From IMG/VR virus record IMGVR_UViG_3300045988_007243: a stretch of DNA of 64,000 nucleotides; one strand, written 5' to 3'. Under the pieces are notes generated by a model. It was not told where the DNA came from, made no database searches, and saw only the letters and a list, made by a program, of their open reading frames with translations. Made by a program: the position numbers and the translations under genes. The stretch is from a virus (taxonomy: Duplodnaviria > Heunggongvirae > Uroviricota > Caudoviricetes). Below, in pieces: positions 6,923-22,384 of the stretch; position 1 is the stretch's first letter, and each line of letters opens with the position of its first letter.

Positions 6923-7371
6923 TATTCATCTCGCTCGATAATAAATACGCCATTAACACGGTTGCAGTAATCTCTGCCTTCGTATCTGGCAGCATCACCA
7001 TATTCTGTGTATTTCTTGACAGAGCAAGGATTCTGACGACGCATGTCAATATCACACTGATTAATACCACCTGCATAGGGTAGTCCTGAAACAGAGCTTT
7101 TAACAAGGTCATCATAAACAGCTTTCAGAGATTTGAATCTGGAAGAGTTACGCAAGTAAACACCACCAACCTTCTCATCTCCCATCTTGGCTACTTGAAA
7201 GAGTAAATATTTAAGAGCTTTGATGGCTGCTTTCTTTTCATCCTTTCCAGATTCTAGATAGAACCACTCTAGCACAGACTGCTCAATAAGAATCTCATCA
7301 TTATTGGTGTCTGTGCAGAGGATTCTTACTCTATCAAGAGGGTTATTGGCTGGGTCGCCTGTATAACACAT
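6922..7371 (-). CDS. head completion/connector-like protein (hypothetical)
   Basis: 149 aa ORF immediately downstream of major capsid gene. Confidence 0.3.
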   Translation of the reverse strand: MCYTGDPANNPLDRVRILCTDTNNDEILIEQSVLEWFYLESGKDEKKAAIKALKYLLFQVAKMGDEKVGGVYLRNSSRFKSLKAVYDDLVKSSVSGLPYAGGINQCDIDMRRQNPCSVKKYTEYGDAARYEGRDYCNRVNGVFIIERDE

Positions 7372-7391: not shown

Positions 7392-8498
7392 TCAGCCACC
7401 TTTAGCGTCAGAACGAACATCTACCAGCAACTGAGGACGTGTGCAGTATGGCAGCATGTAAGAGTGAGCTTCAAAGTCAATACCTTCGTCACGGTCTTTT
7501 TCGTATTCGAATACGTACAGTTCCTGACCAAGTGTATTTGCATAACCCATCTTAGGACATGGACCATATGCCACTTCGAAGATGTTGTTTGCTTCACCCA
7601 GCATAGAAACGTTAGGGAAAGCATGACCTACACCAACAGTTGCTGCTACACCATCAATGCTCACCAGAGTGTGAACCTTACCACGCTTGTCTTTGAACTT
7701 ACCGTTGTACTGGACAAACTTAACACCACCGTAGTAGAAAGTGTTCATATGAGCCTGAACGCCGTCAGTACCACCAGTTCTCAGAGAACCAGTAATCTGC
7801 TGCCAAGCCAGTGGAGTCTGCTGTGCAAGATAAGCGTCACGAATCTTAGGATGCTTAACAAGTTTGCTGAAGAATACACGGTCAACGACTACGTGAATTT
7901 CTTCACCGTTGATTACAGTGCCAGTCTTAGCTTCGTCTTCCATGTGCATACGCAGTTCTTCAATAGCAGCGTCAATGTCAGCATTAGGATTGTCAAGGTC
8001 GAAGTGAATAGTCTTCTTCTCGACGTCGAACTGCTTGTACAGGTCAGCGTACAGAGTACCACGAGCATCAACAACTTTACCCTTCAGAGCTTGCATAAAC
8101 AGGAACTCACGAGTAATATCGAACTTGGTACGAATCTTCATCAGCTTCTTAGCACGTACTACAGCTTCGGTAGTCAGTTCGTTTGCAGTGCCTGGCTGAC
8201 GTACACCCTGAATTTCATCAGGAGTGATGCTTTCAACTTCTTTGAAGTACATCATTGGGAAGCTGATTTGACGAACACGCTCAGGTGCGCTAGTCTCTGC
8301 TTTACGGCTATCACGGTCTACCGCATCAAGCAAGCTAACATCCCAATCAGTCAAGTCCATAAGGAAAGTAGTTTGGGTGATTGGTGCTGAACGGAACAGA
8401 CCTAAGTTGGAAATATACCCATAAGTATTTGGGATAGACTGGACTTCACCAGTCAGGTCAGCAAGGAAAAATCTGCTTTTTTCAGAATTAGTCAACAT
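7392..8498 (-). CDS. major capsid protein (lambda gpE-like family)
   Basis: 368 aa; size, sequence character and position after protease/scaffold and decoration-like gene match lambda E-type capsid proteins. Confidence 0.75.
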   Translation of the reverse strand: MLTNSEKSRFFLADLTGEVQSIPNTYGYISNLGLFRSAPITQTTFLMDLTDWDVSLLDAVDRDSRKAETSAPERVRQISFPMMYFKEVESITPDEIQGVRQPGTANELTTEAVVRAKKLMKIRTKFDITREFLFMQALKGKVVDARGTLYADLYKQFDVEKKTIHFDLDNPNADIDAAIEELRMHMEDEAKTGTVINGEEIHVVVDRVFFSKLVKHPKIRDAYLAQQTPLAWQQITGSLRTGGTDGVQAHMNTFYYGGVKFVQYNGKFKDKRGKVHTLVSIDGVAATVGVGHAFPNVSMLGEANNIFEVAYGPCPKMGYANTLGQELYVFEYEKDRDEGIDFEAHSYMLPYCTRPQLLVDVRSDAKGG

Positions 8499-8531
8499 TG
8501 TAAAATTCTCCAGAATGTCTTATTATTGTTA

Positions 8532-8909
8532 TTACAGGCCAGTTGGTACGAAATCAATACCTTTAGCAGCCAGAGCTGTCTTGACTGCATCAGCATCAAC
8601 ACCTGATTCAAGAGTAAGCAGGTCTTTTAGTTCTGCGTCACGGTAAATACCAACCACTTTCAACTGACCGTGGTAAGACAGTTGCAGGTCTGCATAAAAG
8701 TTAACGATACATACTGAATCAGCCTGAGCTTCTTGCCCTGCTGTAACCTTAGTACCATCTGCTTTCAGAACTTCACCTACACGGTATTCTGTTGAAGCAA
8801 CCGGAGTGTACTCTTTGCGAGAGTGGCCTGTTGGGGTAATCTGTTCCCAAAGAATGATATCATTCAGAGGTTCTCTGTTACCTAACTTAGTAAAACCTTG
8901 ATATGCCAT
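8532..8909 (-). CDS. head decoration-like protein
   Basis: 125 aa ORF between protease/scaffold and major capsid, as lambda gpD is. Confidence 0.45.
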   Translation of the reverse strand: MAYQGFTKLGNREPLNDIILWEQITPTGHSRKEYTPVASTEYRVGEVLKADGTKVTAGQEAQADSVCIVNFYADLQLSYHGQLKVVGIYRDAELKDLLTLESGVDADAVKTALAAKGIDFVPTGL

Positions 8910-8920
8910 TATTGTGTTCC

Positions 8921-10267
8921 TTATTTGATAAGAGATTTTAGAGCATTCTGGAGAGCCAGTTTGCGTTGTTCAGCGGTGTCTTCGGAAGCATTTTTAGCTG
9001 GTTCTTTTTCTTCTTCAACCAAATCAGCTTCGCCGTCATTACCCACTTCTTCCATAGCGTTGGAATGTTCAAGAACAGCACCAGCAGTTTCTTTCAACTT
9101 GGTAATTTCTGATTCTTTTTCTTCCATTGCAGAAGCATGGGACGCGATAGTTTCATTAAGTTTCTGGTTAGCACCTTCCATAGCATTCATAAACAGAACA
9201 CTCAGAGGGTTATCAAGACCAGCACCTAAAATAGTCGTTGCAGCTTCTTTTGCATCAAATCCAAAAGCTTCAGCAGAAGCAGAAATCTTGTTAGTCAAAT
9301 CTGACAAAGCAGCTTCCTGTTCTTTAGCTTTCATTTGAGCAACCTGAAGACGCAAAGCTTCTAGTTCTTGCTTTTCTTGTTCAGTCATTTCTTCACCTGA
9401 ATTGTTAACGTTTAAACTTACAGGAGCCTCTTCAGAACCTTGTAAGTAATTTAAGAAATCATCTTGAGACATGATTGAGTTAATTAAACCAAGTTCAAGA
9501 GCTTCCTGAGCAGAATAAACATTCGCCTCAGTATTCTTTACAGCTTCTTCAGAGAGATTACGAGATTCGGCTACAAAACCTGTAAAGGTTGCGTAGGTAT
9601 CATTAATTCTCTTTTGAAGTCTTTCTTTGCTTTCTTCTGAGAGTGCTTGGAATGGTGAACCCATGCCTTTAAACTCACCAGCTTTGATGACGTTAATTGT
9701 TACGCCATTCTTTTCAAATGCCTTAGTTAATTCCTGATGAACCATAATTACACCAATAGAACCAACATCTGCATCTGGTGATGCAATAATTTCTTCAGCA
9801 GAAGATGCAAGAGCATATGCAGCGGAACAAGCGAACTCATCTACATAGGCAATAATTTTCTTTTGGCCTCTTGAAGCCATAATGTGACGTGCTAATTCAA
9901 AGCAACCTGAAGCTTCACCACCACCAGAATCAATGTGCAGAACAATAGTCTTAATTGACTCATCTGCTAAAGCTTCGTCAAAGCCTCTACGCAAACCTTC
10001 ATAAGAGCTTAGTCCACCTGTACACATTGCATCAATGAATGTCATACGATGGGTTAAACCACCCATAATAGGGATAATAGCAATGTCATCTTTTACTTTT
10101 AAAAGACTTCTTGCTTCACCTTTGGGTTTATCAAAGTTTACTGCTGCTTGGACATCACCCAGCAATCTGTTATTCACATAAGTTGCTGCTGAGTGAGCTA
10201 ATGATTCAGTGGCTAGTAAAGGTTGGTTGAATAATCTATCAGCAAGTCTGAAGATATTCGAACTCAT
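8921..10267 (-). CDS. prohead protease (S49/SppA-ClpP-like) with C-terminal scaffold-like acidic coiled-coil
   Basis: N-terminal half carries S49-type motifs (IMGGLTH..., IDSGGGEASG); C-terminal ~180 aa is Glu/Ala/Lys-rich helical. Confidence 0.75.
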   Translation of the reverse strand: MSSNIFRLADRLFNQPLLATESLAHSAATYVNNRLLGDVQAAVNFDKPKGEARSLLKVKDDIAIIPIMGGLTHRMTFIDAMCTGGLSSYEGLRRGFDEALADESIKTIVLHIDSGGGEASGCFELARHIMASRGQKKIIAYVDEFACSAAYALASSAEEIIASPDADVGSIGVIMVHQELTKAFEKNGVTINVIKAGEFKGMGSPFQALSEESKERLQKRINDTYATFTGFVAESRNLSEEAVKNTEANVYSAQEALELGLINSIMSQDDFLNYLQGSEEAPVSLNVNNSGEEMTEQEKQELEALRLQVAQMKAKEQEAALSDLTNKISASAEAFGFDAKEAATTILGAGLDNPLSVLFMNAMEGANQKLNETIASHASAMEEKESEITKLKETAGAVLEHSNAMEEVGNDGEADLVEEEKEPAKNASEDTAEQRKLALQNALKSLIK

Positions 10268-10278
10268 TTTTACTCACC

Positions 10279-10611
10279 CTATTTGTTTAAATCTACAGAG
10301 ACTGAAGAGATAACATAGATACCTTCTTCAGCGAAGAATTGAGGTTTGCTAAGAGCACCAGTTGCCACGCATTTATCGTTAGCATCCCACAAGCTATAGT
10401 GTGAGACCGTTGCAGAAGCTGGAACAGTAATGTTAACTGTGTCTTCTGAGGCAATTAAGCCATTATCCGGTTCAGAAAAATAAATAGCCACTGGCTGAGT
10501 AACCTTATTTGCTGTAGGGTCTGCCGTTGGGTCTACATTGTGTAAAATAATAGTCGTTGGGGTTAGCGTGGCGAGGATTTTATTCTTACCATCAATAGTT
10601 AATGTTCCCAT
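10279..10611 (-). CDS. hypothetical protein
   Basis: 110 aa ORF between portal and protease genes. Confidence 0.3.
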   Translation of the reverse strand: MGTLTIDGKNKILATLTPTTIILHNVDPTADPTANKVTQPVAIYFSEPDNGLIASEDTVNITVPASATVSHYSLWDANDKCVATGALSKPQFFAEEGIYVISSVSVDLNK

Positions 10612-11111
10612 TAATTAAACCTTACTTTTTGTTTAAGGACTGTTGAATGGTTACCAGATTCATCTACCACATTTACAATCATATCATCTACTTTACCTTT
10701 GACAAGTACTTTGTAATCATTTTGTGAAAAAATGTATTCAAGTCTGTTTGTTTCTTTATTAACTGTCATTGGAGATTGAAATGCAGTGTCGAGGGTAATG
10801 AAAGCGGCTTCAATGCTTTTAACATTGATACGTTTATTCTCGCAGTTATATAACTTTACACCCAAAAGGCATGAACTGTCAAATGGAATTTTAACAATTT
10901 CACTACAATTTCCTGAAATAAACGGTTTTCCACTCATTGGAGCATCAAGTAACCTACAAATAGTGAAAACGTCAGAGGTTCCACCGTCACTTACGTAACC
11001 TGAAAGGCTGACCCTTGAGCCAGCCTCTACAGATAATTTGTCAGTGATAATAAGAACACCTCTATACGAATGCACTCGTGTAGCATTTGAAATAGAGATA
11101 ACTTCAGCCAT
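10611..11111 (-). CDS. hypothetical protein
   Basis: 166 aa ORF between portal and protease genes. Confidence 0.3.
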   Translation of the reverse strand: MAEVISISNATRVHSYRGVLIITDKLSVEAGSRVSLSGYVSDGGTSDVFTICRLLDAPMSGKPFISGNCSEIVKIPFDSSCLLGVKLYNCENKRINVKSIEAAFITLDTAFQSPMTVNKETNRLEYIFSQNDYKVLVKGKVDDMIVNVVDESGNHSTVLKQKVRFN

Positions 11112-12586
11112 TATTTATTTGCCTTATTTGCTGTGCTTGGGTCTTTCGCTGAAGGTGTCTTTGCAGTACCTTCTCCAGCGGTCTTATAACCATCTCCTGA
11201 ACGGCTTTGGCTATTTGGAGAAAGCTTTTCAGATACTGGCTGAGACTCATCAGCAGGAGGAAGACCAATATGCTCTCTAAGCTTGTTAGATAGCTCTTTG
11301 TCAACTTCCAAAGCACCTACTGCAACAGTCTTCTGAATATAAGAACCAATTGCTTCAAGGTCTGGAGTTTCGATATCATCATATGTGATTTGTACATGTT
11401 CTTCATCGTCCCACATATTAAGAGCATAAGTCTGTGCAACTAAATCACGGTTAATTACGTTCTTAATTTGCTTCAGCAGAATATCTACTGACATTGCTAG
11501 TAAGCTTGTCTTAGAATCTGCAAGAGAGAATGAACCGTATTTTGACTGACCCATAGCAAGAACATCTGACATAAATGCCATCATAATCTGCTTGGAATAT
11601 CTGTCAATAATAGAACCTGTATCGTATGCTTTAGCACCCTGTCTAGAAACTAATGAGAACTCAAAAATATCCTCTTTAGTATCTGGGTCGATATATCTAG
11701 GCCAGATTAAACCTGCTCTGTCATTAGCAATCATATCGTTAACAACAGTTTTGCAGTATTGTACGAAAGCTTTCTTTTCAGGTTCTGCATTTTCATCCAG
11801 ATAATCTGGTGGTAAACCAATCTTTGGCATACCTACCAAGTCTCTTGAAACACCAACAGCTTCATACTCTTCAATCTGAACTTTATACTTCCACGGTACA
11901 TAAGCATTAAGTAATGGTGAACGACCTTCTGGATTTCCATATTCATCGTCATACTTAAACAGCATGAATTTAGCTCGTGGAAGTTTTCTTGTCAGTGGTC
12001 TTTCTCCGAGATTAATTGCTCCAGCAATATGTGAAACATTTCTAAGATTCTGTCTAACACCAGTAACTTTTCTAAAGTCTTCGTCAAAATACCACTTATC
12101 AAGTGTTGATTGGTTTCTGATTGGTAATTTAGCCCATCCAATTAGACCATCATCAAATTTTGACTGGTACTTTCCTTTTTTACCCTGTCGCTTCTTATAA
12201 ACTTTCTCGTTAACACAGAACCCATAAGTGCAGAATGACATTACAGAATTAATAAAATCTGCCCAATCATGCTCCATGTCATCCATTAAAGAATTAAAGA
12301 AGTCTGCTCTTTCAAGCATTTTAGGGTCTTGCTCTTTTCCCTTTGGAGGTACGAATCTCCAGTTGACTTTTCTGACAAACATCTTAATAATATTTACAGA
12401 TGCTGCTACAGCAGGGTCACGCATCATTAATTGGAAAGTTTTAATACTTTCAGGGAACCTTAGTGCCTGACGAGGTTCTTCATAGATTCTTCCATTCTTA
12501 ACCTTCAGACCCAAAGAACCTACTTCACCCATTCTAAATGGTGGTAAGCTTTCTTGTGTTTCTGTAATATCTGCCATTCTTCTCAC
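11111..12586 (-). CDS. portal protein
   Basis: 491 aa ORF immediately downstream of large terminase, upstream of protease. Confidence 0.7.
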   Translation of the reverse strand: MRRMADITETQESLPPFRMGEVGSLGLKVKNGRIYEEPRQALRFPESIKTFQLMMRDPAVAASVNIIKMFVRKVNWRFVPPKGKEQDPKMLERADFFNSLMDDMEHDWADFINSVMSFCTYGFCVNEKVYKKRQGKKGKYQSKFDDGLIGWAKLPIRNQSTLDKWYFDEDFRKVTGVRQNLRNVSHIAGAINLGERPLTRKLPRAKFMLFKYDDEYGNPEGRSPLLNAYVPWKYKVQIEEYEAVGVSRDLVGMPKIGLPPDYLDENAEPEKKAFVQYCKTVVNDMIANDRAGLIWPRYIDPDTKEDIFEFSLVSRQGAKAYDTGSIIDRYSKQIMMAFMSDVLAMGQSKYGSFSLADSKTSLLAMSVDILLKQIKNVINRDLVAQTYALNMWDDEEHVQITYDDIETPDLEAIGSYIQKTVAVGALEVDKELSNKLREHIGLPPADESQPVSEKLSPNSQSRSGDGYKTAGEGTAKTPSAKDPSTANKANK

Positions 12587-14638: not shown

Positions 14639-14714
14639 TTGGAGAATCCGAAGGGACTCGAACCCTTATAAACCTGTTTTGCAGACAGGCACATAGCCAT
14701 TTCTGTCACGGATT
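14639..14714 (-). tRNA. tRNA-Cys (GCA)
   Basis: Hand-folded cloverleaf: CCA encoded, 7-bp acceptor, T-loop ACTCGAA(rc), anticodon loop gives GCA. Confidence 0.7.
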
Positions 14715-14718
14715 CAAA

Positions 14719-14811
14719 TTGGAGGAAGATACCAGACTTGAACTGGTACACCGATTTCTCAGCTACTGGCAGTTTAGCAAACTGCTCCCTTACCTTTTAG
14801 GGTTAATCTTC
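14719..14811 (-). tRNA. tRNA-Ser (GCU), long variable arm
   Basis: Perfect acceptor pairing (ggaagat/atcttcc), canonical T-arm, 21-nt variable arm, anticodon loop gives GCU. Confidence 0.7.
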
Positions 14812-14813
14812 CA

Positions 14814-15548
14814 TTATTTCTGTAATGCGTTCTTCATTTCTGGTGTTGCAATAGCATCAATTACACCAGTTTTACAAGCATCATCAAACCAGTCTGGTAA
14901 GATACCTGCTAAGAACCCATTGATATTCGTTTTAAGGTACTCTGCAATAAGGGCAGCTTCTTCTTCAATCATCTGCACAACTTCATCTGCATAAGCTGTA
15001 ATCTTCGAGATACCTTCATTAATCTTACTAACAGCTTGGTTAGCTAAATCAGAAATAGTATCAAGACCTTTGTCAATAGCGTCTTGTAAATCACTTAATA
15101 CATCATTAACACCGTCTAGTGCACTGTTAATCGTATCAATAGCTTTTTGACCATACTCTGTAGCAACACCCATAATACCACTAAATGGTGTACAGCCAAC
15201 TTGTTCACCTGCTGCACCCATAACATTAGAATAACCTTTTGCTACCTGCATACGTGATGAAAACTCATCAATGGACTTTTGACCGTAATCTGTCAGTGTT
15301 TTGGTAGTTGATGTAGTGCTTGTCAGACTCGTGGTAAAGCTGTTAAGCAGAACTGTTGTAAGTCCAGCAGCAACAAGCTTATCTTTTACTGTAGGGTCTG
15401 ATACAGAACTAATAGAGCTTACAAGTGATGTAGAGGCAGCTACGGTTCCACCGAGAACTGCTGCACCAGTAATAAGGGGGTTAGAAAACCCTTTACCAGT
15501 TTTTAAGAGATTAAAAATCTCCTTACCTTGTTCTGTCATCTCTTTCAT
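14814..15548 (-). CDS. hypothetical protein embedded in tRNA array
   Basis: ORF-track start at 15611 overlaps a tRNA; start moved to internal ATG (MKEMTEQ...) with AAAGG RBS. Confidence 0.4.
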   Translation of the reverse strand: MKEMTEQGKEIFNLLKTGKGFSNPLITGAAVLGGTVAASTSLVSSISSVSDPTVKDKLVAAGLTTVLLNSFTTSLTSTTSTTKTLTDYGQKSIDEFSSRMQVAKGYSNVMGAAGEQVGCTPFSGIMGVATEYGQKAIDTINSALDGVNDVLSDLQDAIDKGLDTISDLANQAVSKINEGISKITAYADEVVQMIEEEAALIAEYLKTNINGFLAGILPDWFDDACKTGVIDAIATPEMKNALQK

Positions 15549-15566
15549 TAAGCACCTTTGAAATTG

Positions 15567-15641
15567 GTAGTCCAGTGGGATTTGAACCCTCTTCTCATGT
15601 TTTTCAGACACGCGCTTTAACCATATAAGCTACTTGGACTA
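15567..15641 (-). tRNA. tRNA-Phe (GAA), tentative
   Basis: Acceptor tagtcca/tggacta pairs perfectly, T-loop ATTTGAA(rc), anticodon loop gives GAA; T-stem and D-arm imperfect. Confidence 0.45.
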
Positions 15642-15646
15642 TAAAT

Positions 15647-15722
15647 TGGGGTGACCTACGGGATTTGAACCCGTATAGACCATGTTCACAGCATGGGTCA
15701 TTACCATTTATGATAAGGCCAC
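15647..15722 (-). tRNA. tRNA-His (GUG)
   Basis: Perfect T-stem and anticodon stem, loop gives GUG, discriminator C73 as expected for His. Confidence 0.65.
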
Positions 15723-15753
15723 ATTTAAGGACTCTCGTAAGAATCCTTAGAAG

Positions 15754-15829
15754 TGGCAGCGGCATAAGGATTTGAACCTTAATAAGACAGCTTCAGAGAC
15801 TGCTGCATTGCCAGTTATGCTATACCGCT
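15754..15829 (-). tRNA. tRNA-Gln (CUG)
   Basis: CCA encoded, canonical T-arm, anticodon stem with two G-U pairs, loop gives CUG. Confidence 0.55.
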
Positions 15830-15834
15830 AAATT

Positions 15835-15913
15835 TGGTACTCCATATCGGATTCGAACCGATACATAACACAGATTTTAAGTCTGGCCTCTCTGCCAATT
15901 GGAGTAATGGAGC
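15835..15913 (-). tRNA. tRNA with Leu anticodon UAA, short variable arm
   Basis: CCA encoded, A73, canonical T-arm, anticodon loop CUUAAAA; only 6-7 nt between T and anticodon arms. Confidence 0.5.
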
Positions 15914-15915
15914 AT

Positions 15916-15991
15916 TGGCGGGGGATGTTGGAATTGAACCAACTTCTTCGATTTCAAAGACCGAGGTTTTAACCTTGTAAACTAATCCCCT
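15916..15991 (-). tRNA. tRNA-Gln (UUG)
   Basis: CCA encoded, perfect T-stem and D-stem, anticodon loop gives UUG; position 1-72 unpaired. Confidence 0.55.
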
Positions 15992-15999
15992 TTAAATCT

Positions 16000-16557
16000 T
16001 TACTTTCTCAGTGGATGAATAAAGAATGCCAACATAACTCTTTCCCTTGAGAATGCTCTTTCTTCTGGGACAACACTTTTTAGTTTCCATCCAATATAAA
16101 TTCTCCAGTAAAATTGTTTACCAAAGATTTTAATTGATGGGATAAAAGCGAATAACCCCCAAGCATTACTGTTCCACATTAGGAGATAACCAGTCTGATT
16201 ATCTTCAGGGTCAGAACTTACGTTGATATTACCTTTCCACTTAGTAACATCTTTTACATCTCTTCCTAATACATGGTAAGAGAAGTTATAAGCTTTGTTT
16301 CTCCAGAGCCATCCGACTCTCTGCATATAGACACCAAGCTTACCAATCTTTCTAATCTTAGCCCATCGTTTGATATGACCTGCATCACCATCAATTGGGT
16401 TGTCATAAGTCTCCATCCATCTGAACCCGAAAGGCAAGTGTCCTTTCTTCTCACTGTAGAATGGAACTACAAAAGGTGCTAAGATAACTGCTAAGATTGC
16501 TGCAAATGGCTCTAACAAAGCTAAGAAAATCCATGAAGCATACTTTAAGTATCTCAT
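16000..16557 (-). CDS. membrane protein (hypothetical)
   Basis: 185 aa, hydrophobic N-terminal segment; lies between tRNA sub-clusters. Confidence 0.4.
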   Translation of the reverse strand: MRYLKYASWIFLALLEPFAAILAVILAPFVVPFYSEKKGHLPFGFRWMETYDNPIDGDAGHIKRWAKIRKIGKLGVYMQRVGWLWRNKAYNFSYHVLGRDVKDVTKWKGNINVSSDPEDNQTGYLLMWNSNAWGLFAFIPSIKIFGKQFYWRIYIGWKLKSVVPEERAFSRERVMLAFFIHPLRK

Positions 16558-16796
16558 TGTCTAATCCTCGTAAGGAGGTAAATGTTATTATTCGTTTCTA
16601 AACCTTCTGGTAAAACTGTCTCAAAAATAACACTCTTCAGATGTCTACCACCAAAACAATCACGTATAAATCTTTCTACTCTAGCGGGGTCACATAAGTA
16701 TCCCACTTTTAAGAAAATGTGGTGTTCAACACCAATGACCCTGACAAACTCAATACTCTCACAGTTTTCATGTTCAACTACTGTTAATGTTTGCAT
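16554..16796 (-). CDS. hypothetical protein
   Basis: 80 aa ORF between tRNA sub-clusters. Confidence 0.35.
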   Translation of the reverse strand: MQTLTVVEHENCESIEFVRVIGVEHHIFLKVGYLCDPARVERFIRDCFGGRHLKSVIFETVLPEGLETNNNIYLLTRIRQ

Positions 16797-16814
16797 AGTA
16801 TCACCTTTTTATCT

Positions 16815-16890
16815 GGCGCAGGATAAGGGATTCGAACCCCTATTAACAGCTTCGTAGACTGTTGCTCTTTCCATTTGAACTAATCCTGCA
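16815..16890 (-). tRNA. tRNA-Arg (ACG)
   Basis: CCA encoded, perfect acceptor pairing gcaggat/atcctgc, anticodon loop gives ACG. Confidence 0.65.
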
Positions 16891-16895
16891 AAATT

Positions 16896-16973
16896 GGTGT
16901 TCCAAGACGGATTCGAACCGTCACTAATACAAGGTTTGAGCTTGCATCCTCTGCCAATTGGGATACTGGAACA
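16896..16973 (-). tRNA. tRNA with Leu anticodon CAA, short variable arm
   Basis: CCA encoded, A73, perfect T-arm, anticodon loop CUCAAAC; scaffold paralogous to 15835-15913 and 17476-17552. Confidence 0.5.
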
Positions 16974-16974
16974 T

Positions 16975-17049
16975 GGTACTCACTAAAGGACTTGAACCTT
17001 TTTCTTCATCTTGTAAGGGTGATGTTTTACCATATAAACTAAGCGAGTA
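16975..17049 (-). tRNA. tRNA-Val (UAC)
   Basis: CCA encoded, perfect T-stem and D-stem, anticodon loop gives UAC (one stem mismatch). Confidence 0.55.
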
Positions 17050-17054
17050 TGAAA

Positions 17055-17141
17055 GAGGTCTGAAGTTGTGCCGCTAACTCAACTCCGTGGAATTTGTTAC
17101 GGTCTTCAGTTGACTCAAAGCGGTCTTTCACTTGACCTCTG
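17055..17141 (-). other. tRNA-sized structured element without canonical T-loop
   Basis: 87-nt interval in a tRNA-sized gap with perfectly paired 7-nt termini (agaggtc/gacctct) and internal ctgaag/cttcag repeat, but no GTTCRANY T-loop. Confidence 0.3.
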
Positions 17142-17145
17142 AATT

Positions 17146-17222
17146 GGTGCTGCTCACAGGACTTGAACCCGCATCTCCATCCTTACAAGGGATGTGTAAT
17201 AGCCAATTATACGAAAGCAGCA
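17146..17222 (-). tRNA. tRNA-Thr (UGU)
   Basis: CCA encoded, perfect anticodon stem catcc/ggatg, loop gives UGU. Confidence 0.6.
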
Positions 17223-17229
17223 TTAATTT

Positions 17230-17304
17230 GGAGCATCCAGAGGGAATCGAACCCTCAACCTCAGTTTGGAAGACTGTAATTTTCCCGTTTAAACTATGGA
17301 TGCA
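17230..17304 (-). tRNA. tRNA-Gly (UCC)
   Basis: Perfect acceptor gcatcca/tggatgc, perfect T-stem, U73, anticodon loop gives UCC. Confidence 0.65.
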
Positions 17305-17310
17305 CTAATT

Positions 17311-17386
17311 GGTGGAGAAGCAGGGAATTGAACCCTGTACTTAAGTTTGCAAAACTTATGTTTTAACCATGTAAACTACATCCCCA
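17311..17386 (-). tRNA. tRNA-Ala (UGC)
   Basis: Perfect T-, anticodon- and D-stems; anticodon UGC; G3-U70 wobble and A73 (Ala identity elements) present. Confidence 0.7.
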
Positions 17387-17392
17387 ATGTTT

Positions 17393-17468
17393 GGTACAGG
17401 TGGAGGGAATTGAACCCATCATCTTACTGATTAAGAGTCAGCCGCATAACCATTTTGCTACACCTGCA
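17393..17468 (-). tRNA. tRNA-Lys (CUU)
   Basis: CCA encoded, anticodon hairpin actga/tcagc with loop giving CUU; scaffold paralogous to 19090-19165. Confidence 0.55.
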
Positions 17469-17475
17469 TTAATTT

Positions 17476-17552
17476 GGTACACCTAGAGAGATTCGAACTC
17501 ACACTGAGCAGATTCTAAGTCTGCTGCCTCTACCAGTTGGGCTATAGGTGCA
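17476..17552 (-). tRNA. tRNA with Leu anticodon UAG, short variable arm
   Basis: CCA encoded, A73, perfect anticodon stem gcaga/tctgc, loop gives UAG; 5-nt variable region. Confidence 0.5.
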
Positions 17553-18005
17553 TTAAATCAAATGTCTTGAGAATTGACTGTGGCAATTTGGACACAAGAA
17601 CCGAAGATTCTCTTTTCTATCATCTAACCAGTTCTCGTTAATGTGGTCAACATCAAGAGTTAGAGGGTTATCCAACCAATACGGTAACTGACCACATTTA
17701 GAGCATTTGTATTCGACACCAGAGGCTATTAAAGCTCTTCTTAGTTGTGAAGACCTAGCTCTTTCACCAGATTCACGTAGAATTAGTATTTCTTCAGGCT
17801 TTCTTTTTGGTACAGTTTTAATCTTACCAGCCTTTTGTCCGAGGAAATGAGAAGTGTCTATTTCAAACTTCTCTATAACACGCTTTAGATGTGACTGAGA
17901 ACCACCTGCTGGTTTTCTCCCAAGCTTAATAAGTACTTCTCTGAATGATACTGAATCCTTTACTAAAGGCTCAAGAATATCTTTAGTCAAACTGCTACGT
18001 GCCAT
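17553..18005 (-). CDS. HNH homing endonuclease
   Basis: 150 aa; C-terminal HNH motif (LDVDHINENWLDDRKENLRFLCPNCH); free-standing inside tRNA array. Confidence 0.75.
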   Translation of the reverse strand: MARSSLTKDILEPLVKDSVSFREVLIKLGRKPAGGSQSHLKRVIEKFEIDTSHFLGQKAGKIKTVPKRKPEEILILRESGERARSSQLRRALIASGVEYKCSKCGQLPYWLDNPLTLDVDHINENWLDDRKENLRFLCPNCHSQFSRHLI

Positions 18006-18097
18006 GTGTCAATCTCCCATTAAACCTTTTTAGAGAACTTCTAAGAACCTAAGCAACAAGGTTCCACAACAAGCTGTAATAACCTTAGAAGCCCTCT

Positions 18098-18122
18098 AAA
18101 AAGACCTAAAAAGGTCTTTGCA
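18098..18122 (-). terminator. possible intrinsic terminator/hairpin
   Basis: AGACC-N5-GGTCT hairpin followed by a short U-tract on the minus strand. Confidence 0.3.
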
Positions 18123-18274
18123 TAGTCTTGTTTAATCTGGTGACTAGAACCTTTGGAGAGCTTGATATTATCTCTTCTCCGTGACACCTACTAGGTGCTT
18201 TATCAGTGTGTACGACAACACGAGGGATAAACCGAAAATGCGAGCAAGCATGGACGGTGTAAAATCTTATTAGG

Positions 18275-18362
18275 CGGTAAGTAAAGGAGTCGAACCCTCA
18301 CCGTATCTCTACAGTGGCAACAGTTTTCAAGACTGTTTGGCTGCCATTAGCCGCTACCTACC
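18275..18362 (-). tRNA. tRNA-Ser (UGA), long variable arm
   Basis: Perfect anticodon stem acagt/actgt, loop gives UGA, 20-nt variable arm; CCA not encoded. Confidence 0.6.
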
Positions 18363-18375
18363 CCTAATAAGACTT

Positions 18376-18458
18376 TGGCATGGGACGGAGGAGTTGAACC
18401 CCTTTGAAACGGTTTTGGAGGCCGTTGCTCATGCCTTAGAGTCTTAACATCGTCCCAT
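18376..18458 (-). tRNA. tRNA, identity unresolved (possibly Trp CCA)
   Basis: CCA encoded, perfect acceptor atgggac/gtcccat, canonical T-loop; internal fold ambiguous, about 7 nt longer than class I. Confidence 0.4.
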
Positions 18459-18601
18459 ACTATAATTCGAAGCTCACCGTATTATCTCAACACTGTAAAG
18501 CCCCTTCTCAGATTATTTACATGTTCTGGAAAACATGAGATACAGACCACCTCCCTACAGGAAGACCCGCTTAGGTCGTCTAAGTAATCTGCTAACTAAA
18601 T

Positions 18602-18683
18602 TGGTCGAGGCGGCAGGACTCGAACCCGCATACTCCACTTACTCGGTTAACGGCGGTTTAGAAGACCGCTGAGATACGCCCCG
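18602..18683 (-). tRNA. atypical tRNA-like gene (anticodon hairpin reads UCU, Arg)
   Basis: CCA encoded, acceptor and T-arm canonical, perfect 5-bp hairpin with loop UCU, but no room for a normal D-arm. Confidence 0.35.
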
Positions 18684-18931
18684 TAATTATCTTTAAAGAC
18701 TCTCTTAGAAAGCCCTTAAAGATGCCCACCTTATTAATCATACCGTGGGCGAGTACGCCAAATTCTTTGATGAGGGATTGGAAGACCTCACTGGTGTTTA
18801 GCCTATCAAGCTACTGCCAGAAAAACATTGTCGTTTGCATTTATTTTAAATTTGCAAAATAGACGCTACGCAACGAAAACTAAGGTTAGTATAAAGTAGT
18901 CACATCTCAATGTCAACAACTTTATTGAAAT

Positions 18932-19007
18932 TGGTACTGGTAGGTGGAATCGAACCACCGATGTTCCCTTATCAGGGGAGTGTTATAACCTTCTTAACTA
19001 TACCAGC
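18932..19007 (-). tRNA. tRNA-Ile (GAU)
   Basis: Perfect T-stem ggtgg/ccacc, perfect D-stem, anticodon loop gives GAU. Confidence 0.6.
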
Positions 19008-19008
19008 T

Positions 19009-19085
19009 TGGAGGTTCAGATGGGAATCGAACCCACATTCATAGGGCTTATGAGACCCTTGCATTACCTTATCTGCGACTGAACC
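19009..19085 (-). tRNA. tRNA-Met (CAU) (or lysidine Ile)
   Basis: Perfect acceptor ggttcag/ctgaacc, anticodon stem with GGG/CCC, loop gives CAU. Confidence 0.6.
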
Positions 19086-19089
19086 ATAT

Positions 19090-19165
19090 TGGTAGAAGTG
19101 GAGGGATTCGAACCCATCGCCTGTCAGATTAAAAGTCTGCCGCATCACCATTCTGCTACACTTCC
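19090..19165 (-). tRNA. tRNA-Lys (UUU)
   Basis: CCA encoded, anticodon loop TTAAAAG(rc) gives UUU. Confidence 0.55.
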
Positions 19166-19170
19166 ATTAA

Positions 19171-19312
19171 ATTATCTTTGTAGATAAGCTACCCAGACTT
19201 GCTTAAGGTCTGTAGCGATGTGCCTTTTTGGGTTTAAATCTAGAATTTACCCTTTCACCCTTTGTGGTCGCATACTCACAGGTAAGCTTAATAACTTATC
19301 TACAAAGATAAT
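19171..19312. repeat. 18-bp perfect inverted repeat pair flanking a 106-bp spacer
   Basis: attatctttgtagataag at 19171-19188 is the exact reverse complement of cttatctacaaagataat at 19295-19312. Confidence 0.6.
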
Positions 19313-19365
19313 TACCAGACCGTTGTTTATCATCTTAAGTGCTACCATTACACCAACTCGACATC

Positions 19366-19390
19366 TGCCGAGTGAAGGAATCGAACCTTC
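19366..19390 (-). pseudogene. tRNA 3' fragment (acceptor + T-arm only)
   Basis: gccgagt + gaagg-AATCGAA-ccttc matches a tRNA 3' half but no matching 5' half follows. Confidence 0.35.
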
Positions 19391-19424
19391 GCCTTTTCTT
19401 TACCGAGAAATAGATTGTTTAAGT

Positions 19425-19452
19425 TTTGCTGTAAACGGTCTTCTGTAAATTT
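19425..19452. repeat. 28-bp repeat tttgctgtaaacggtcttctgtaaattt, copy 1
   Basis: Identical 28-mer at 19993-20020; diverged copies at 19512-19536 and 20161-20187. Confidence 0.6.
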
Positions 19453-19619
19453 GTTGAGCCAGACCAAGTTTTAAATTTTTCAAAATTAAATTGGCTTGAA
19501 ATTTTAAGTAACTTGCTGAATTTGGTCTTCTGCTCCTTTAAAGAATACTCGTAAGAACCCTTTAAGGGAGGGGCTAAATAGCCCTCTCAAAACATCATTT
19601 TGAAATACTTATTATAAGT

Positions 19620-19696
19620 TGGCGGCTACGATGAGACTTGAACTCACATCATCTCCCGTGACAGGGGAGTATTTTCTCCAGTTAAACTACATAGCC
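19620..19696 (-). tRNA. tRNA-Asp (GUC)
   Basis: CCA encoded, perfect anticodon stem ctccc/gggag, loop gives GUC. Confidence 0.65.
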
Positions 19697-19701
19697 TTTA
19701 T

Positions 19702-19789
19702 TGGTGTGCCGTGTAGGAGTCGAACCTACCGAGTCTCAATGACAAGGGATTTACAGTCCCCACCGCTACCATCTACGGGATAACGACAC
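19702..19789 (-). tRNA. tRNA-Tyr (GUA), long variable arm
   Basis: Perfect T-stem, anticodon loop gives GUA, about 15-nt variable arm. Confidence 0.6.
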
Positions 19790-19801
19790 ATTTTAATTTA
19801 T

Positions 19802-19857
19802 ATTCAGGATAAGGACTTGCACCTTACAAATCGGTGAGCAATCGCTTCTCTCCTAAA
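19802..19857 (-). pseudogene. truncated tRNA-like element (56 nt)
   Basis: Acceptor-like ends pair, perfect T-stem taagg/cctta around a mutated T-loop ACTTGCA; too short for a tRNA. Confidence 0.3.
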
Positions 19858-19859
19858 TT

Positions 19860-19936
19860 TGGCGGTTAGTCAGGGATTCGAACCCTGTGCCATTCGCTTA
19901 ACAGGCGACCGCACATACCTTATGTGCTTCCTAACC
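19860..19936 (-). tRNA. tRNA-Asn (GUU)
   Basis: Perfect T-stem caggg/ccctg, D-stem gcac/gtgc, anticodon loop gives GUU. Confidence 0.55.
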
Positions 19937-19992
19937 ATGTTTAGTATTACCAGACCGTATCTTTCAATTTTTTCCGCTAAAAATTTCATTAA

Positions 19993-20020
19993 ATTTGCTG
20001 TAAACGGTCTTCTGTAAATT
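19993..20020. repeat. 28-bp repeat tttgctgtaaacggtcttctgtaaattt, copy 2
   Basis: Identical to 19425-19452; abuts the 3' end of the tRNA at 20020-20096. Confidence 0.6.
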
Positions 20021-20096
20021 TGGAGGCGGGTGAAGGAGTCGAACCTGCCGATACCATGCTAATGAGACATGTGAGACGCCCTTTCTCTATACCCGC
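20020..20096 (-). tRNA. tRNA-Met/Ile2 (CAU), second CAU species
   Basis: CCA encoded, anticodon stem catgc/acatg, loop gives CAU; position 1-72 unpaired. Confidence 0.5.
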
Positions 20097-20188
20097 AATT
20101 CTTAATGACCAGACCAAATCTCTTCTTTGTCCGATTTACCTTCAGATGAATAAGATTAAGTTTGCTGTAATTGGTCTTCTGTCAAAAC

Positions 20189-20266
20189 TGGCGTTCCAGA
20201 AGGGATTTGAACCCTCAAATATCCACTTTGAAAGAGTGGTGACTATACCATTTTGTCTACTGGAAC
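20189..20266 (-). tRNA. tRNA-Glu (UUC)
   Basis: Perfect acceptor gttccag/ctggaac, perfect anticodon stem ccact/agtgg, loop gives UUC. Confidence 0.65.
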
Positions 20267-20273
20267 ATTAATT

Positions 20274-20350
20274 TGGTCTCTGTTGGAGGACTTGAACCTC
20301 CGGCCTTACCGCCCCAAACGGAACGCTCTACCAAGCTGAGCTAAACAGAG
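20274..20350 (-). tRNA. tRNA-Pro (UGG)
   Basis: Perfect acceptor ctctgtt/aacagag, perfect T- and D-stems, anticodon loop gives UGG. Confidence 0.6.
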
Positions 20351-20467
20351 ATAAACTTTTCAAACTCTATGTAACCACTTTAACATTATTTTTTAGTGAT
20401 TGTCAAGAACTTTTTAAAATATTTTTCAGTATCTTAGAAAAGCTCTCATTTCGTTTCTATGTAGAAC

Positions 20468-20496
20468 ATATTAAAGGGTATTAAACACATTGTCAA
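20468..20496 (-). promoter_or_regulatory. sigma70-like promoter driving the tRNA array
   Basis: Minus strand reads TTGACA-17 bp-TAATAT about 120 bp upstream of the first tRNA. Confidence 0.55.
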
Positions 20497-20514: not shown

Positions 20515-21930
20515 TTACCAGATATAACGGTCAATCATTACTGCTTTGAGCATTACGCTGATTGGGTCAAACTTCTCACCACCAAGCAGAGCTTTTAAAG
20601 TGGCTGGAGAGAAACCAGATACCATTGCTACACCGTTATCCTTAACAGACACTTCGCAAGTACCATTACGGTTTGCTAAGTACCAGAATACCAGTTGTGG
20701 CATTTCGTATCCAGCTTTTTTGTACTTACTCTGAATTGCTTCAAAGTTTGTACGACCGTTAGCTCCATCAACCTGATTGAACTCCATATCGGAGAAGATG
20801 ATAAGCTTACTTGGCATATCTTTCTGAGTCAAGTTGTTTCTTTTACCTGTCTCAAGAATACGGTCAAAAGCAGCTTGTAAGTTAGTTGAGCCATATTCAA
20901 CGTGTCGCATCACCTGACGATGACGGTTTCGTAAATCACCACTCAGTTCGATGAAGTGAGGGTTTGTTGAATAAACCATCAACTCATTCTTAAAGCAACC
21001 TGTATTGCGTTCTGCTACATACAAGGCAAGTGATACACCAATATCCAGAGCAGTAATGGAGCCAAAATTCACCCAATACATTGAACTTGACACATCAGAC
21101 ATACATAGAATGTTTTCACCCTCTGCCATCCAGTTTGGTAGTGCTTTCCACTGCTCATTAGCAACATCTGCATTACCATACTTAACAGATTTAATCACAT
21201 CGTATGGGTAAACAGCACCAGCATTAATCTTAGTCTCACCCTTTGATAAGGACTCGATGTAAGCTTTGTAGCGTTCTCCATCTTTGCGGTTAAACAGTTT
21301 TTGGTAACGTGCAGCAGCAAGTGAAGGAATCTTACTGTAGTCAATCTTACCAAACTCATTAGCAGAGATTTTTTGCTCGACTGTATCAGATAGTGCAGAC
21401 AACAGTGTGCGGTACTCTTTCTCACTCAAGTTGGCAAACTTGCAGAAACGTTTTACAAACTGCTTATGACGTGGTTTGACTCGTGGTAACCACTTAGCTG
21501 CCAAACCTGCTGTTGCAGGGTCTAGTAATGCTGCTTCTAAATGTTTGAAGGCATCTGTCTCGAAACGAGTACCTACGAAGATTTTGAAGTCATCAAAACG
21601 ACCAAGTTCTGCAATCTTATCCATAATGCGAAGAACCTGTGTAGGCTCTAAAACTTTATCTTCAATCGCTTGAAGCAAAACAGTTCTGAAGGCTTTACGC
21701 TCACCCATACCTTCTCGTACATCTCGCATATGCAGTAAAATACGAACTGCAACATCAACATCCTCACGCAAAGCTTTGTAGAACAGGTCTGGTAAGATTT
21801 CTACATTGCTACGGCTTGAACCAGCAGCTTTGTAAAAGTCTACAAGAGCAGACATTGATGAAGTATGGTTTACAGCACCATTTTCAGTTCGACCTGCATG
21901 AAGGTGCGCATGTTTAAATAATTCGCTCAT
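20515..21930 (-). CDS. vWA (MIDAS) domain protein, possibly Ro/TROVE-like
   Basis: 471 aa; DxSxS MIDAS motif (MSDVSSSM) within a vWA-like fold; about 280 aa N-terminal domain of unknown type. Confidence 0.5.
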   Translation of the reverse strand: MSELFKHAHLHAGRTENGAVNHTSSMSALVDFYKAAGSSRSNVEILPDLFYKALREDVDVAVRILLHMRDVREGMGERKAFRTVLLQAIEDKVLEPTQVLRIMDKIAELGRFDDFKIFVGTRFETDAFKHLEAALLDPATAGLAAKWLPRVKPRHKQFVKRFCKFANLSEKEYRTLLSALSDTVEQKISANEFGKIDYSKIPSLAAARYQKLFNRKDGERYKAYIESLSKGETKINAGAVYPYDVIKSVKYGNADVANEQWKALPNWMAEGENILCMSDVSSSMYWVNFGSITALDIGVSLALYVAERNTGCFKNELMVYSTNPHFIELSGDLRNRHRQVMRHVEYGSTNLQAAFDRILETGKRNNLTQKDMPSKLIIFSDMEFNQVDGANGRTNFEAIQSKYKKAGYEMPQLVFWYLANRNGTCEVSVKDNGVAMVSGFSPATLKALLGGEKFDPISVMLKAVMIDRYIW

Positions 21931-22012
21931 ATTTTTCTCTCTTCTCTCATTTTGTTTGTTGATGTGACAGACTTTAGAGTAACTTTATAGAGTCTGTCAA
22001 CATCTTTTAAAA

Positions 22013-22384
22013 TTATTTTTTGAGGGTTGCAACAGCAGAGAACGTTGGTTTGTTATCTGTCTGAGACTGACCACCGTTATCAGGAGTCTTCTTAGTGTCT
22101 GCTGCAATGGCTTTCATCTCACCTGCTGAGTGAGTCATGATAGTTTTACCGACCTCAATCATACTCTTGATGGTTACATCGTCTGTGTTTAACCCGAACT
22201 CTGCAAGCTTAGCAGCGTCCCTTGTAACAATCGCCTCAAACAACTTTGCAGCAAACTCAGCAGAATTATCAATGGTCAGTTGAGCTTTTACAAGTGAGCT
22301 TTTGTTACGAGAGCCTTTTGGTCTTCCAGATGGGTTTCCAGATTGGCCTTTTTTAAACTGGCCTTTGTTTGTTCTGTTTTTCAT
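22013..22384 (-). CDS. hypothetical protein (GNPxGRPKG motif)
   Basis: 123 aa, basic N-terminus with GQSGNPSGRPKGS motif. Confidence 0.4.
   Translation of the reverse strand: MKNRTNKGQFKKGQSGNPSGRPKGSRNKSSLVKAQLTIDNSAEFAAKLFEAIVTRDAAKLAEFGLNTDDVTIKSMIEVGKTIMTHSAGEMKAIAADTKKTPDNGGQSQTDNKPTFSAVATLKK

Follow-up and report, generated by a model that had tools for sequence, protein, structure and literature searches.

A Ro60-like protein and candidate Y-like RNAs at the tRNA array of a Felix O1-like phage

Ribonucleoprotein (RNP) particles of Ro60 and Y RNA are conserved from bacteria to humans, but what they do in bacteria and phages remains poorly understood. Here, we ask whether a phage protein lying outside the recognised Ro60 sequence family could form a particle of this kind, and if so with which RNAs. 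The locus lies in a 64,000-nucleotide stretch of viral DNA (IMG/VR record IMGVR_UViG_3300045988_007243; hereafter the window), where a gene on the minus strand (20515..21930) stands ahead of 25 arrayed tRNA genes, likewise on the minus strand (14640..20350). A first-pass annotation, working from the letters alone, had noted that the 471-amino-acid (aa) product shares its architecture with Ro60/Rsr proteins and had suggested a tRNA-like Y RNA as partner. We find that the protein almost certainly has the Ro60 fold, as judged by structure prediction, and that it would likely, from comparative sequence evidence, form an RNP with four RNA modules (M1–M4) for which the tRNA array is the transcription and processing context.

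The window represents a Felix O1-like phage (Felixounavirus); the 2.1 kb around the gene are 98% identical to VpaE1, Si3, and Felix O1, and the gene is the counterpart of Felix O1 ORF42 (NP_944857.1; "RNA-binding protein" in RefSeq). For the protein, the Ro60/RNA-binding idea is thus already stated—in RefSeq, in PHROGs, in SEA-PHAGES names (for example "Ro-like RNA binding protein" for cluster L mycobacteriophage members such as Rumpelstiltskin gp54), and for gp130 of phage Bas63 (PMC11482910). That 2024 PhageMaP preprint worked on Bas63 (Escherichia phage JohannRWettstein, MZ501086), also a Felixounavirus, and reported that gp130 structurally resembles Ro60 and counters the Ppl defence, with the speculation that Y RNAs are hidden among the tRNA genes (PMC11482910). 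The gp130 gene occupies the same position, directly upstream of tRNA-Pro, and its product (bas63_0130) and the window protein are orthologs, with 460 of 471 residues identical (98%) and the same neighbours; by this orthology, the window phage very probably has anti-Ppl activity as well. The preprint did not identify the RNAs, whereas here they are located, in unannotated spacers and not among the annotated tRNAs. What is new here is therefore the probable cognate RNAs and the family-wide pairing of DUF2828 proteins with Y-like RNAs, a pairing that we did not find in Rfam 15 or in the searchable literature, and we likewise found no earlier description of the RNA partner.

A predicted Ro60 fold in a diverged protein family

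The open reading frame (ORF) was called exactly in the first pass, on the minus strand with an ATG start, and its product matches two Pfam models above their cut-offs: DUF2828 on the N-terminal part (E = 3.5e-29, 102.3 bits, cut-off 29) and DUF7788, a vWA domain, at residues 274–455 (E = 3e-43, 148.1 bits, cut-off 27.1). The profile phrog_850 ("RNA-binding protein") matches the full length (residues 1–471, E = 4.1e-184), which places the protein in DUF2828 (PF11443), DUF7788 (PF25043), and PHROG 850 and agrees with the initial description of about 280 N-terminal residues followed by a C-terminal vWA domain. The DxSxS metal ion-dependent adhesion site (MIDAS) recognised at that stage reads DVSSS (residues 279–283, nt 21096–21082) and is completed by T349 and D381, giving the full DxSxS...T...D set expected of a Ro60/TROVE vWA domain. 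In an alignment of 52 family sequences (40–89% identity), D279, S281, S283, T349, and D381 are all invariant, and the N-terminal part likewise contains many invariant Arg, Gly, Trp, and Lys positions, among them R69-D70-x-R72-x-G74-x-G76-E77-R78 and K146-W147. The family is large, comprising more than 2,550 protein clusters, every one with both DUF2828 and DUF7788, with thousands of metagenomic proteins and at least 710 phage records that carry a member; Rumpelstiltskin gp54 is 33% identical to the window protein over its full length.

An AlphaFold2 model computed from the 52-sequence alignment is confident (predicted local distance difference test 90.6, predicted template modelling score 0.89), all-helical to about residue 265 and alpha/beta thereafter. 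When this model was compared with the PDB using Foldseek, the best 13 matches were all Ro60/TROVE structures aligned over the full chain (E = 1e-8 to 4e-5), including 9kop and 9l5y (Thermus phage phiLo), 2i91, 1yvp, and 1yvr (Xenopus), human Ro60 cryo-EM entries, and 2nvo (Deinococcus Rsr); isolated vWA domains ranked after them, at E around 1e-3. The model therefore predicts the whole-chain Ro60 fold, in which a vWA domain at the C-terminus closes a horseshoe of alpha-helical repeats: residues 1–265 (21136..21930, minus strand) would form a TROVE-like horseshoe of HEAT repeats, and residues 270–455 (20566..21123, minus strand) the vWA domain. Structure prediction was the check that the first-pass annotation had proposed for its comparison with Ro60/Rsr, and the comparison has come through it. 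Among the predicted viral structures of BFVD, phage and giant-virus proteins of the DUF2828/DUF7788 type come first, followed by proteins named "TROVE domain-containing protein" and "Ro-like RNA binding protein". The same fold is found there in giant eukaryotic viruses (Pithovirus, Cafeteria roenbergensis virus, Marseillevirus, and Mimiviridae; template modelling scores up to 0.87), so that this branch is not confined to phages.

At the level of sequence, support for the relationship is partial. Alignment of the 52-member family to 29 bona fide TROVE proteins with hhalign gave a match (probability 89.2%, E = 2.2e-6, 195 columns) confined to columns 242–453, which take in the final helix of TROVE (VYPYDVI against VHPxNVL) and the vWA domain in its entirety, down to SGFS against SGFD. 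The TROVE alignment for this comparison was seeded with the Ro protein of mycobacteriophage Catera; a 75-aa fragment of Xenopus Ro60 had yielded only six short fragments. A family profile run against PDB sequences placed Ro60 at E = 0.94, in register at the MIDAS, and the vWA_Ro60 Pfam model was weakly matched by 11 of the 52 family members, while a single-sequence search of PDB sequences gave only noise (uridine kinase, E = 1.3) and an NCBIfam search with the protein gave no match. Going by these comparisons, the window protein is a member of the DUF2828/DUF7788 family and not of the TROVE sequence family (Pfam PF05731 and PF25045), and it is probably homologous to Ro60. We also considered a vWA cochaperone of the MoxR type and rejected it, as no AAA+ partner is kept adjacent to the gene.

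Y-like RNA modules in the tRNA array and beside related genes

A motif pair, AGAAGACC (in RNA form CAGAAGACC) followed 60–130 nt on by GGTCTGG (GGUCUGG), occurs at four minus-strand sites in the tRNA array, M1–M4, and nowhere else on the gene's strand of the 64 kb. The four modules have a common predicted fold, in which an outer stem of 4 bp leads through an AGA/G internal loop into a 7-bp helix, AGACC(R)(W), and then a single-stranded (U/A)U(U/A)CAGCAA, and their outer stems covary between copies (UGAC/GUCA, UUAC/GUAA, GAGC/GCUC). We scored them with a covariance model built from Felix-like sequences alone (R1) and with a further model, R2. M1 (20105..20184), a short Y-like RNA, has the outer stem UGAC/GUCA, the AGA/G loop, and the inner helix AGACCAA/UUGGUCU, followed by UUACAGCAA (43.6 bits with R1, 43.4 with R2); M2 (19946..20017), also short, has the same closing structure with the outer stem UUAC/GUAA (52.3 and 47.4 bits, respectively); and M3 (19455..19535), the third short form, carries GAGC/GCUC (R2, 37.0 bits). 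M1 takes up the spacer between tRNA-Glu and tRNA-Met and M2 that between tRNA-Met and tRNA-Asn, each to within 3–9 nt, so that ordinary tRNA processing would free both. M3 and M4 lie between tRNA-Asp and tRNA-Lys.

M4 (19311..19448; R1 151.9 bits, R2 111.4 bits) is a more elaborate, YrlA-like RNA, in which the same closing helix and ACAGCAA (19432–19426) are joined to a permuted tRNA-like domain. Its parts follow in the order V hairpin (19410–19395), T arm (19390–19374; the canonical GAAGG-UUCGAUU-CCUUC), a 7-bp acceptor-like stem capped by a tetraloop (19373–19356), U-G, and D arm (19353–19339; the canonical GUGU-AAUGGUA-GCAC). Bacterial YrlA RNAs have this layout—V, T, acceptor stem, and D inside a Ro-binding stem, with the Ro gene no more than 4 kb away and in the same orientation (PMC4201824)—and M4 shares it in both respects, with the permuted arms inside a terminal stem and a start 1067 nt downstream of the gene's stop codon, on the minus strand. 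It was found in 253 phage records, where it is mostly unannotated or labelled a pseudo-tRNA; we rejected an ordinary or pseudo tRNA on account of the permuted arm order and the loop-capped acceptor end, and terminators as an explanation of the modules for want of a U tract. The first-pass remark about tRNA-like oddities near the gene has thus been given substance, by M4 and by a further tRNA-like match deeper in the array (18605–18683).

Two observations concern the immediate surroundings of M4. In Bas63, two small antisense coding sequences annotated as hypothetical proteins (bas63_0137 and bas63_0138; MZ501086, 20749–21023) overlie M3 and M4, with M4 beneath such a sequence, and are probably spurious calls opposite RNA genes. 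In the window, a highly stable structured element (19166–19312, minus strand) follows straight after M4 and immediately precedes tRNA-Lys(ttt); it has a 23-bp closing stem and a minimum free energy (MFE) of -47 kcal/mol (z -5.7), and contains a hairpin, CUACAGACC-UUAAGCAA-GUCUGGGUAG, that is like the AGACC helix plus AGCAA of the modules. The element may represent a fifth binding site or, alternatively, an RNA of its own.

The M4 orthologs of Felixounavirus, Suspvirus, and Mooglevirus hardly differ in their T and D arms, and for the stem that separates these arms they have three unrelated sequences, each of which pairs (ACUCGGC/GUCGAGU, ACACG/CGUGU, ACCCUUC/GAAGGGU). Over six M4 orthologs, 100% of alignment cells pair and 27/27 pairs are kept, with compensatory changes at three pairs, found in the acceptor-like stem. 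Module content varies by genus, Moogle having no M1 and Sf15 no M2. Counted alone, ACAGCAA shows no enrichment in the window (10 copies on one strand and 5 on the other, with about 4 expected), and specificity lies only in the structured context.

R1 also found full-length matches in very distant phages, on the gene's strand and adjoining DUF2828 genes: in Bacillus phage FADO (60 bits, E = 1e-10), Enterococcus EFDG1 (58 bits, with a second copy at 34 bits), Mycobacterium Rumpelstiltskin (40 bits, beginning 99 nt past the stop codon), Sinorhizobium phiM19 (36 and 26 bits), Cronobacter S13 (36 bits), and Yersinia P778 (31 bits, E = 4e-4, without a clear D arm). For the Bacillus, Enterococcus, Mycobacterium, and Sinorhizobium phages, the best matches span 36–60 bits (E = 1e-10 to 3e-5). 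We extended the comparison to 75 metagenomic viral loci with the gene and to a wider set; R1 matches fell on the gene's strand in 32 of 32 cases. In 30 sequences aligned to the model, a procedure that biases the alignment towards structure, 96.6% of cells pair, as against 60% when shuffled and about 40–45% with slid partners, and compensatory changes occur at 25 of 27 pairs; none of 500 shuffles reached the observed values. R2 gave 85 matches at E ≤ 0.1 over 848 kb, every one on the gene's strand; 47 of the 86 loci besides the window have a match, and in the window it recovered M4, M2, M1, and M3 exactly and nothing more. Seventeen of the 38 strongest matches lie within 170 nt of the gene. As a control, the tRNA region of phage T5, with 25 tRNAs and no such gene, scored 20 bits at best; model matches at 19–33 bits proved to be tandem-tRNA junctions and were discarded (loci L013, 3247–3381, and L011, 692–821, and T5).

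A pattern test that is blind to tRNA-likeness (7-bp helix, 1–4 nt, CAGCAA, partner strand within 25–190 nt) gave the same strand preference. The helix with CAGCAA occurred 134 times on the gene's strand and 35 times on the opposite strand, and with ACAGCAA 78 and 7 times, whereas bare CAGCA was evenly spread (857 and 836); at least one CAGCAA module was present on the gene's strand in 67 of the 86 loci and on the opposite strand in 26. In Aeromonas, Listeria, Campylobacter, Staphylococcus, and Mycobacterium phages, 2–5 short modules stand in tandem and directly adjoin the gene. Taken together, these comparisons back the first-pass suggestion of a tRNA-like Y RNA partner.

Relationships with the established YrlA family are limited to one part of the molecule. 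Searched with Rfam YrlA (RF02553), two EFDG1 modules match at 43 and 34 bits (E = 1.5e-8 and 6.5e-6) and one phiM19 module at 35 bits (E = 6e-4). None attains the gathering score of 69, and it is the T, acceptor-stem, and D domain that accounts for the matches, with the outer stems and the 5' GNCGAA motif unmatched. Conversely, the canonical YrlA that precedes Catera's TROVE-type Ro gene is detected by R2 at model positions 34–121 (V-T-AS-D, with AS for acceptor stem) only. The two RNA classes thus have a tRNA mimic in common and differ in their docking module, the conserved element across DUF2828-linked RNAs being the helix plus CAGCAA. Such a combination is expected if each RNA class co-evolved with its own protein branch.

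A proposed ribonucleoprotein and its alternatives

We propose that the protein is a ring-shaped RNA-binding protein with the Ro60 fold, from a strongly diverged and mostly viral branch defined by DUF2828 plus DUF7788, and that it would bind the docking module common to M1–M4 (4-bp outer stem, AGA/G loop, 7-bp helix, and single-stranded (A)CAGCAA). The RNAs would be transcribed along with the adjacent tRNA array and freed by processing of the flanking tRNAs, and M4 would add a circularly permuted tRNA mimic, as in bacterial YrlA Y RNAs. On the model of Ro60/Rsr, the RNAs might act as a gate on the protein or as a tether between it and host RNA enzymes, for example polynucleotide phosphorylase (PNPase). 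The biological role, extrapolated from gp130, would be protection of the phage against the Ppl defence system, in which M1–M4 may modulate the anti-Ppl activity, do something else, or be replaced by host RNAs. That the RNA component is itself part of the counter-defence, within a widespread phage RNP of DUF2828 proteins and CAGCAA-type Y RNAs, is a possibility that we hold with considerable doubt; the capped tRNA mimic might then, for instance, serve as a decoy or block for host factors that sense or cut tRNA-like RNA, or retarget host PNPase.

Measured against known systems, the proposed particle combines shared and distinct features. Like Ro60/Rsr (Xenopus 1YVP/2I91, human Ro60, and Deinococcus Rsr 2NVO; also the RYPER complex with PNPase), it would have a HEAT-repeat ring closed by a vWA/MIDAS domain and partner RNAs with a terminal bulged helix, encoded next to the gene on the same strand (PMC4201824). 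Unlike those proteins, to which its identity is 9–15%, the window protein has no TROVE Pfam match and is about 60–90 aa shorter, and the docking motif of its RNAs is the helix with CAGCAA in place of GGUCCGA or GNCGAA. The phiRo60 protein of Thermus phage phiLo (9KOP, 9L5Y), with its RNAs Yrl1 and Yrl2, is on the contrary a TROVE-family member; its RNAs carry a CGAA motif and sit upstream of the gene, and it attenuates host PNPase in vitro, with no defence system implicated (PMC12135203). YrlA (RF02553) and the Ro/YrlA loci of cluster C mycobacteriophages (Catera, ET08) share with M4 the order V, T, capped acceptor, and D within a terminal stem and the same-strand location within 4 kb, whereas their outer stems and 5' protein-binding motif differ and their partner is TROVE-type, not DUF2828-type. 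The layout of a Ro gene followed by a tRNA array with an HNH endonuclease also occurs in Gordonia phage Sixama, with a TROVE-type Ro. Within PHROG 850 and the SEA-PHAGES cluster L "Ro-like" family, of which the window protein is a clear member, we did not find published experiments behind the names, and no RNA partner is recorded. T5 resembles the window in having structured non-tRNA RNAs between its tRNA genes, co-transcribed with them (RNAI, RNAIII, and the "tRNA-like" RNA1/RNA2/RNA3; 8285–11950), and differs in that these "stable RNAs with unknown functions" give no match to the module model.

Several observations weigh against a Ro60-type particle of this protein and these RNAs. On the protein side, the TROVE model PF05731 matched neither the window protein (at E ≤ 1) nor any of the 52 family members (at E ≤ 10), the N-terminal 240 residues align to Ro60 by structure only, and the searchable literature yielded no RNA-binding experiment for a protein of the DUF2828 type. 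On the RNA side, M4 has no RF02553 match at E ≤ 10 in 19280–19560 and so does not reach the gathering score, Rfam scans of the tRNA array and of M3/M4 returned no Y RNA or YrlA match, and the YrlA 5' motif GNCGAA(N)G, the proposed Ro-binding site, is absent from M4, whose 5' region reads UUACAGAAGACCGUUUACAGCAA. To these can be added the sub-threshold scores of the EFDG1 and phiM19 modules (34–43 bits), the modest MFE z-score of M4 alone (-2.1), the structural bias of the fitted covariation alignment, the 39 of 86 loci that have no covariance-model match within about 4 kb, and the lack of any at the locus of a KVP40-like Vibrio phage. Finally, gp130 alone, whether plasmid-borne or inserted in T7, restores T7 plaques on a Ppl host (PMC11482910), and anti-Ppl activity therefore needs no RNAs encoded by Bas63.

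This last result is an argument for regarding the protein as an inhibitor that acts without RNA, its MIDAS face clamping an acidic residue of a Ppl protein or host factor, its Ro ring a leftover, and M1–M4 unrelated spacer structures of a tRNA operon. The invariant MIDAS residues fit such a role, as does the typical preference of vWA/MIDAS domains for protein ligands (Rea1-MIDAS/UBL complexes are among the fold matches). It nevertheless leaves unexplained why one docking module should recur beside the gene and on its strand in phages of three bacterial phyla (Proteobacteria, Firmicutes, and Actinobacteria), and why Arg, Lys, and Trp should be invariant in the ring-forming N-terminal half, and we regard it as improbable. 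In a second alternative, the protein would bind the modules, but these would act in cis and not as free Y RNAs, either as autoregulatory operators, placed in the leader or the trailer of the mRNA, or as signals for processing or stability of the tRNA precursor. In many phages, the modules do lie within the 5' leader, 10–100 nt from the start codon, and in Aeromonas phages the last one ends 14 nt before the ATG and takes in the ribosome-binding region; tandem repetition, too, is typical of operator arrays. In the window, however, they stand 330–1200 nt downstream, behind two promoter-like sites and between tRNAs, where translational control is impossible, and the complete tRNA-like domain of M4 and its relatives would be superfluous for an operator, so that cis action is in our view quite improbable.

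A functionless origin of M1–M4, as decayed tRNA genes, recombination scars, or footprints of homing endonucleases, could draw on the HNH endonuclease ORF within the array (17553–18005), on the differences between genera such as the absence of M1 in Moogle and of M2 in Sf15, and on the fact that a T arm followed by a D arm arises at any tandem-tRNA junction, where the model false positives at 19–33 bits fall. We strongly disfavour it and give it hardly any weight: compensatory changes preserve the pairing of the capped acceptor stem and the closing helix across genera and phyla, short modules without any tRNA-like part show the same helix and CAGCAA signature, and many loci with modules have no tRNA genes nearby. 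An RNP of the Ro60-like protein with M1–M4 remains the reading that we prefer.

Genomic setting and implications

Both flanks of the gene contain sigma-70-like sites with a perfect TTGACA, recognised as consensus matches only: TTGACA-18-TAAAGT ahead of it (21971..22000, minus strand) and, between its stop codon and tRNA-Pro (20377..20496, minus strand), TTGACA-17-TAATAT (20496–20468), which is located within a 12-bp hairpin, and TTGACA-18-TAAAGT (20406–20377). The tRNA array starts 164 nt past the stop codon. Sigma-70-like sites are overall no commoner than in shuffled sequence, and these sites are for this reason only consistent with the initial statement that the gene sits directly upstream of the tRNA promoter. 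On the other side of the gene, a 123-aa DUF5681 ORF (22013–22384, minus strand) is always found 5' of the Ro-like gene and on its strand in Ounavirinae (Felix O1, Moogle, SUSP2, Sf15, HP1, Bas63, and probably P778), and may be a functional partner of the Ro-like protein.

The array itself has other features. The HNH endonuclease ORF mentioned above encodes 150 aa on the minus strand, and Felix O1 has three such ORFs in different places of its array; the tRNA array is accordingly a homing-endonuclease hotspot. Within it, a gap of 570 nt (18363–18931, minus strand) holds the additional tRNA-like match (18605–18683), which scores 31.7 bits with Rfam tRNA, above the gathering score, ends in an encoded ...GACCA, and was not called by ARAGORN. 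The gap also has a weak tRNA-Sec-like match (18382–18456), weak matches to tmRNA and permuted tmRNA (18685–18990; E = 0.003–0.01), and a promoter-like site, TTGACA-17-TATACT (18916–18888). As the RNAs of T5 show, the presence of non-tRNA RNAs in phage tRNA arrays is a more general phenomenon, so far without explanation.

Beyond the Felix-like phages, tRNA genes lie within 4 kb of the DUF2828 gene in 21 of 60 metagenomic loci, all co-oriented with it. In some phages, neighbours of the gene include RNA-repair functions, namely an RtcB-type "tRNA splicing ligase", an RNA ligase, and an HD phosphohydrolase in Listeria phages, Rnl2 in Aeromonas phages, and a CCA-adding enzyme in Cronobacter phage S13, which echo the rsr-yrlBA-rtcBA operon of Salmonella (PMC7790460). 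In S13, two annotated "tRNAs" of 121 and 113 nt (6895–7137) overlap a 78-bit module match (6941–7072), and the same 78-bit match occurs in a metagenomic locus (L042, 5941–6072); these cases look like tRNA/module chimeras or misannotations. In two other metagenomic loci, a tRNA-Ile(tat) of unusual length (92 nt) abuts a strong module match, with a gap of 2 nt (L047, 8267–8486) or 0 nt (L055, 6597–6797). A few kb upstream of the Ro-like gene and on its strand, EFDG1 encodes a standard tmRNA (1071–1421, 140.6 bits) and locus L045 a permuted one (257–707, 71.7 bits, tag ANTNFALAA).

These findings would mean that a second branch of Ro proteins, unrecognisable by sequence, is paired with a separate class of Y-like RNAs, in which the docking motif is different. 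They would extend the Ro/Y RNP to phages that are used for typing, biocontrol, and therapy, among them Felix O1-like phages and large Listeria, Staphylococcus, Enterococcus, and Campylobacter phages; in about 250 Felix-like genome records, the RNAs are unannotated or overlaid by spurious small ORFs. Protection of Bas63 against Ppl is a clean genetic phenotype, and with the RNAs located, a role of Y RNA in it becomes directly testable. If the RNAs do take part in the counter-defence, this would be the first anti-defence system based on Y RNA, and would offer a genetically tractable handle on the Ro/Y RNPs of bacteria and phages.

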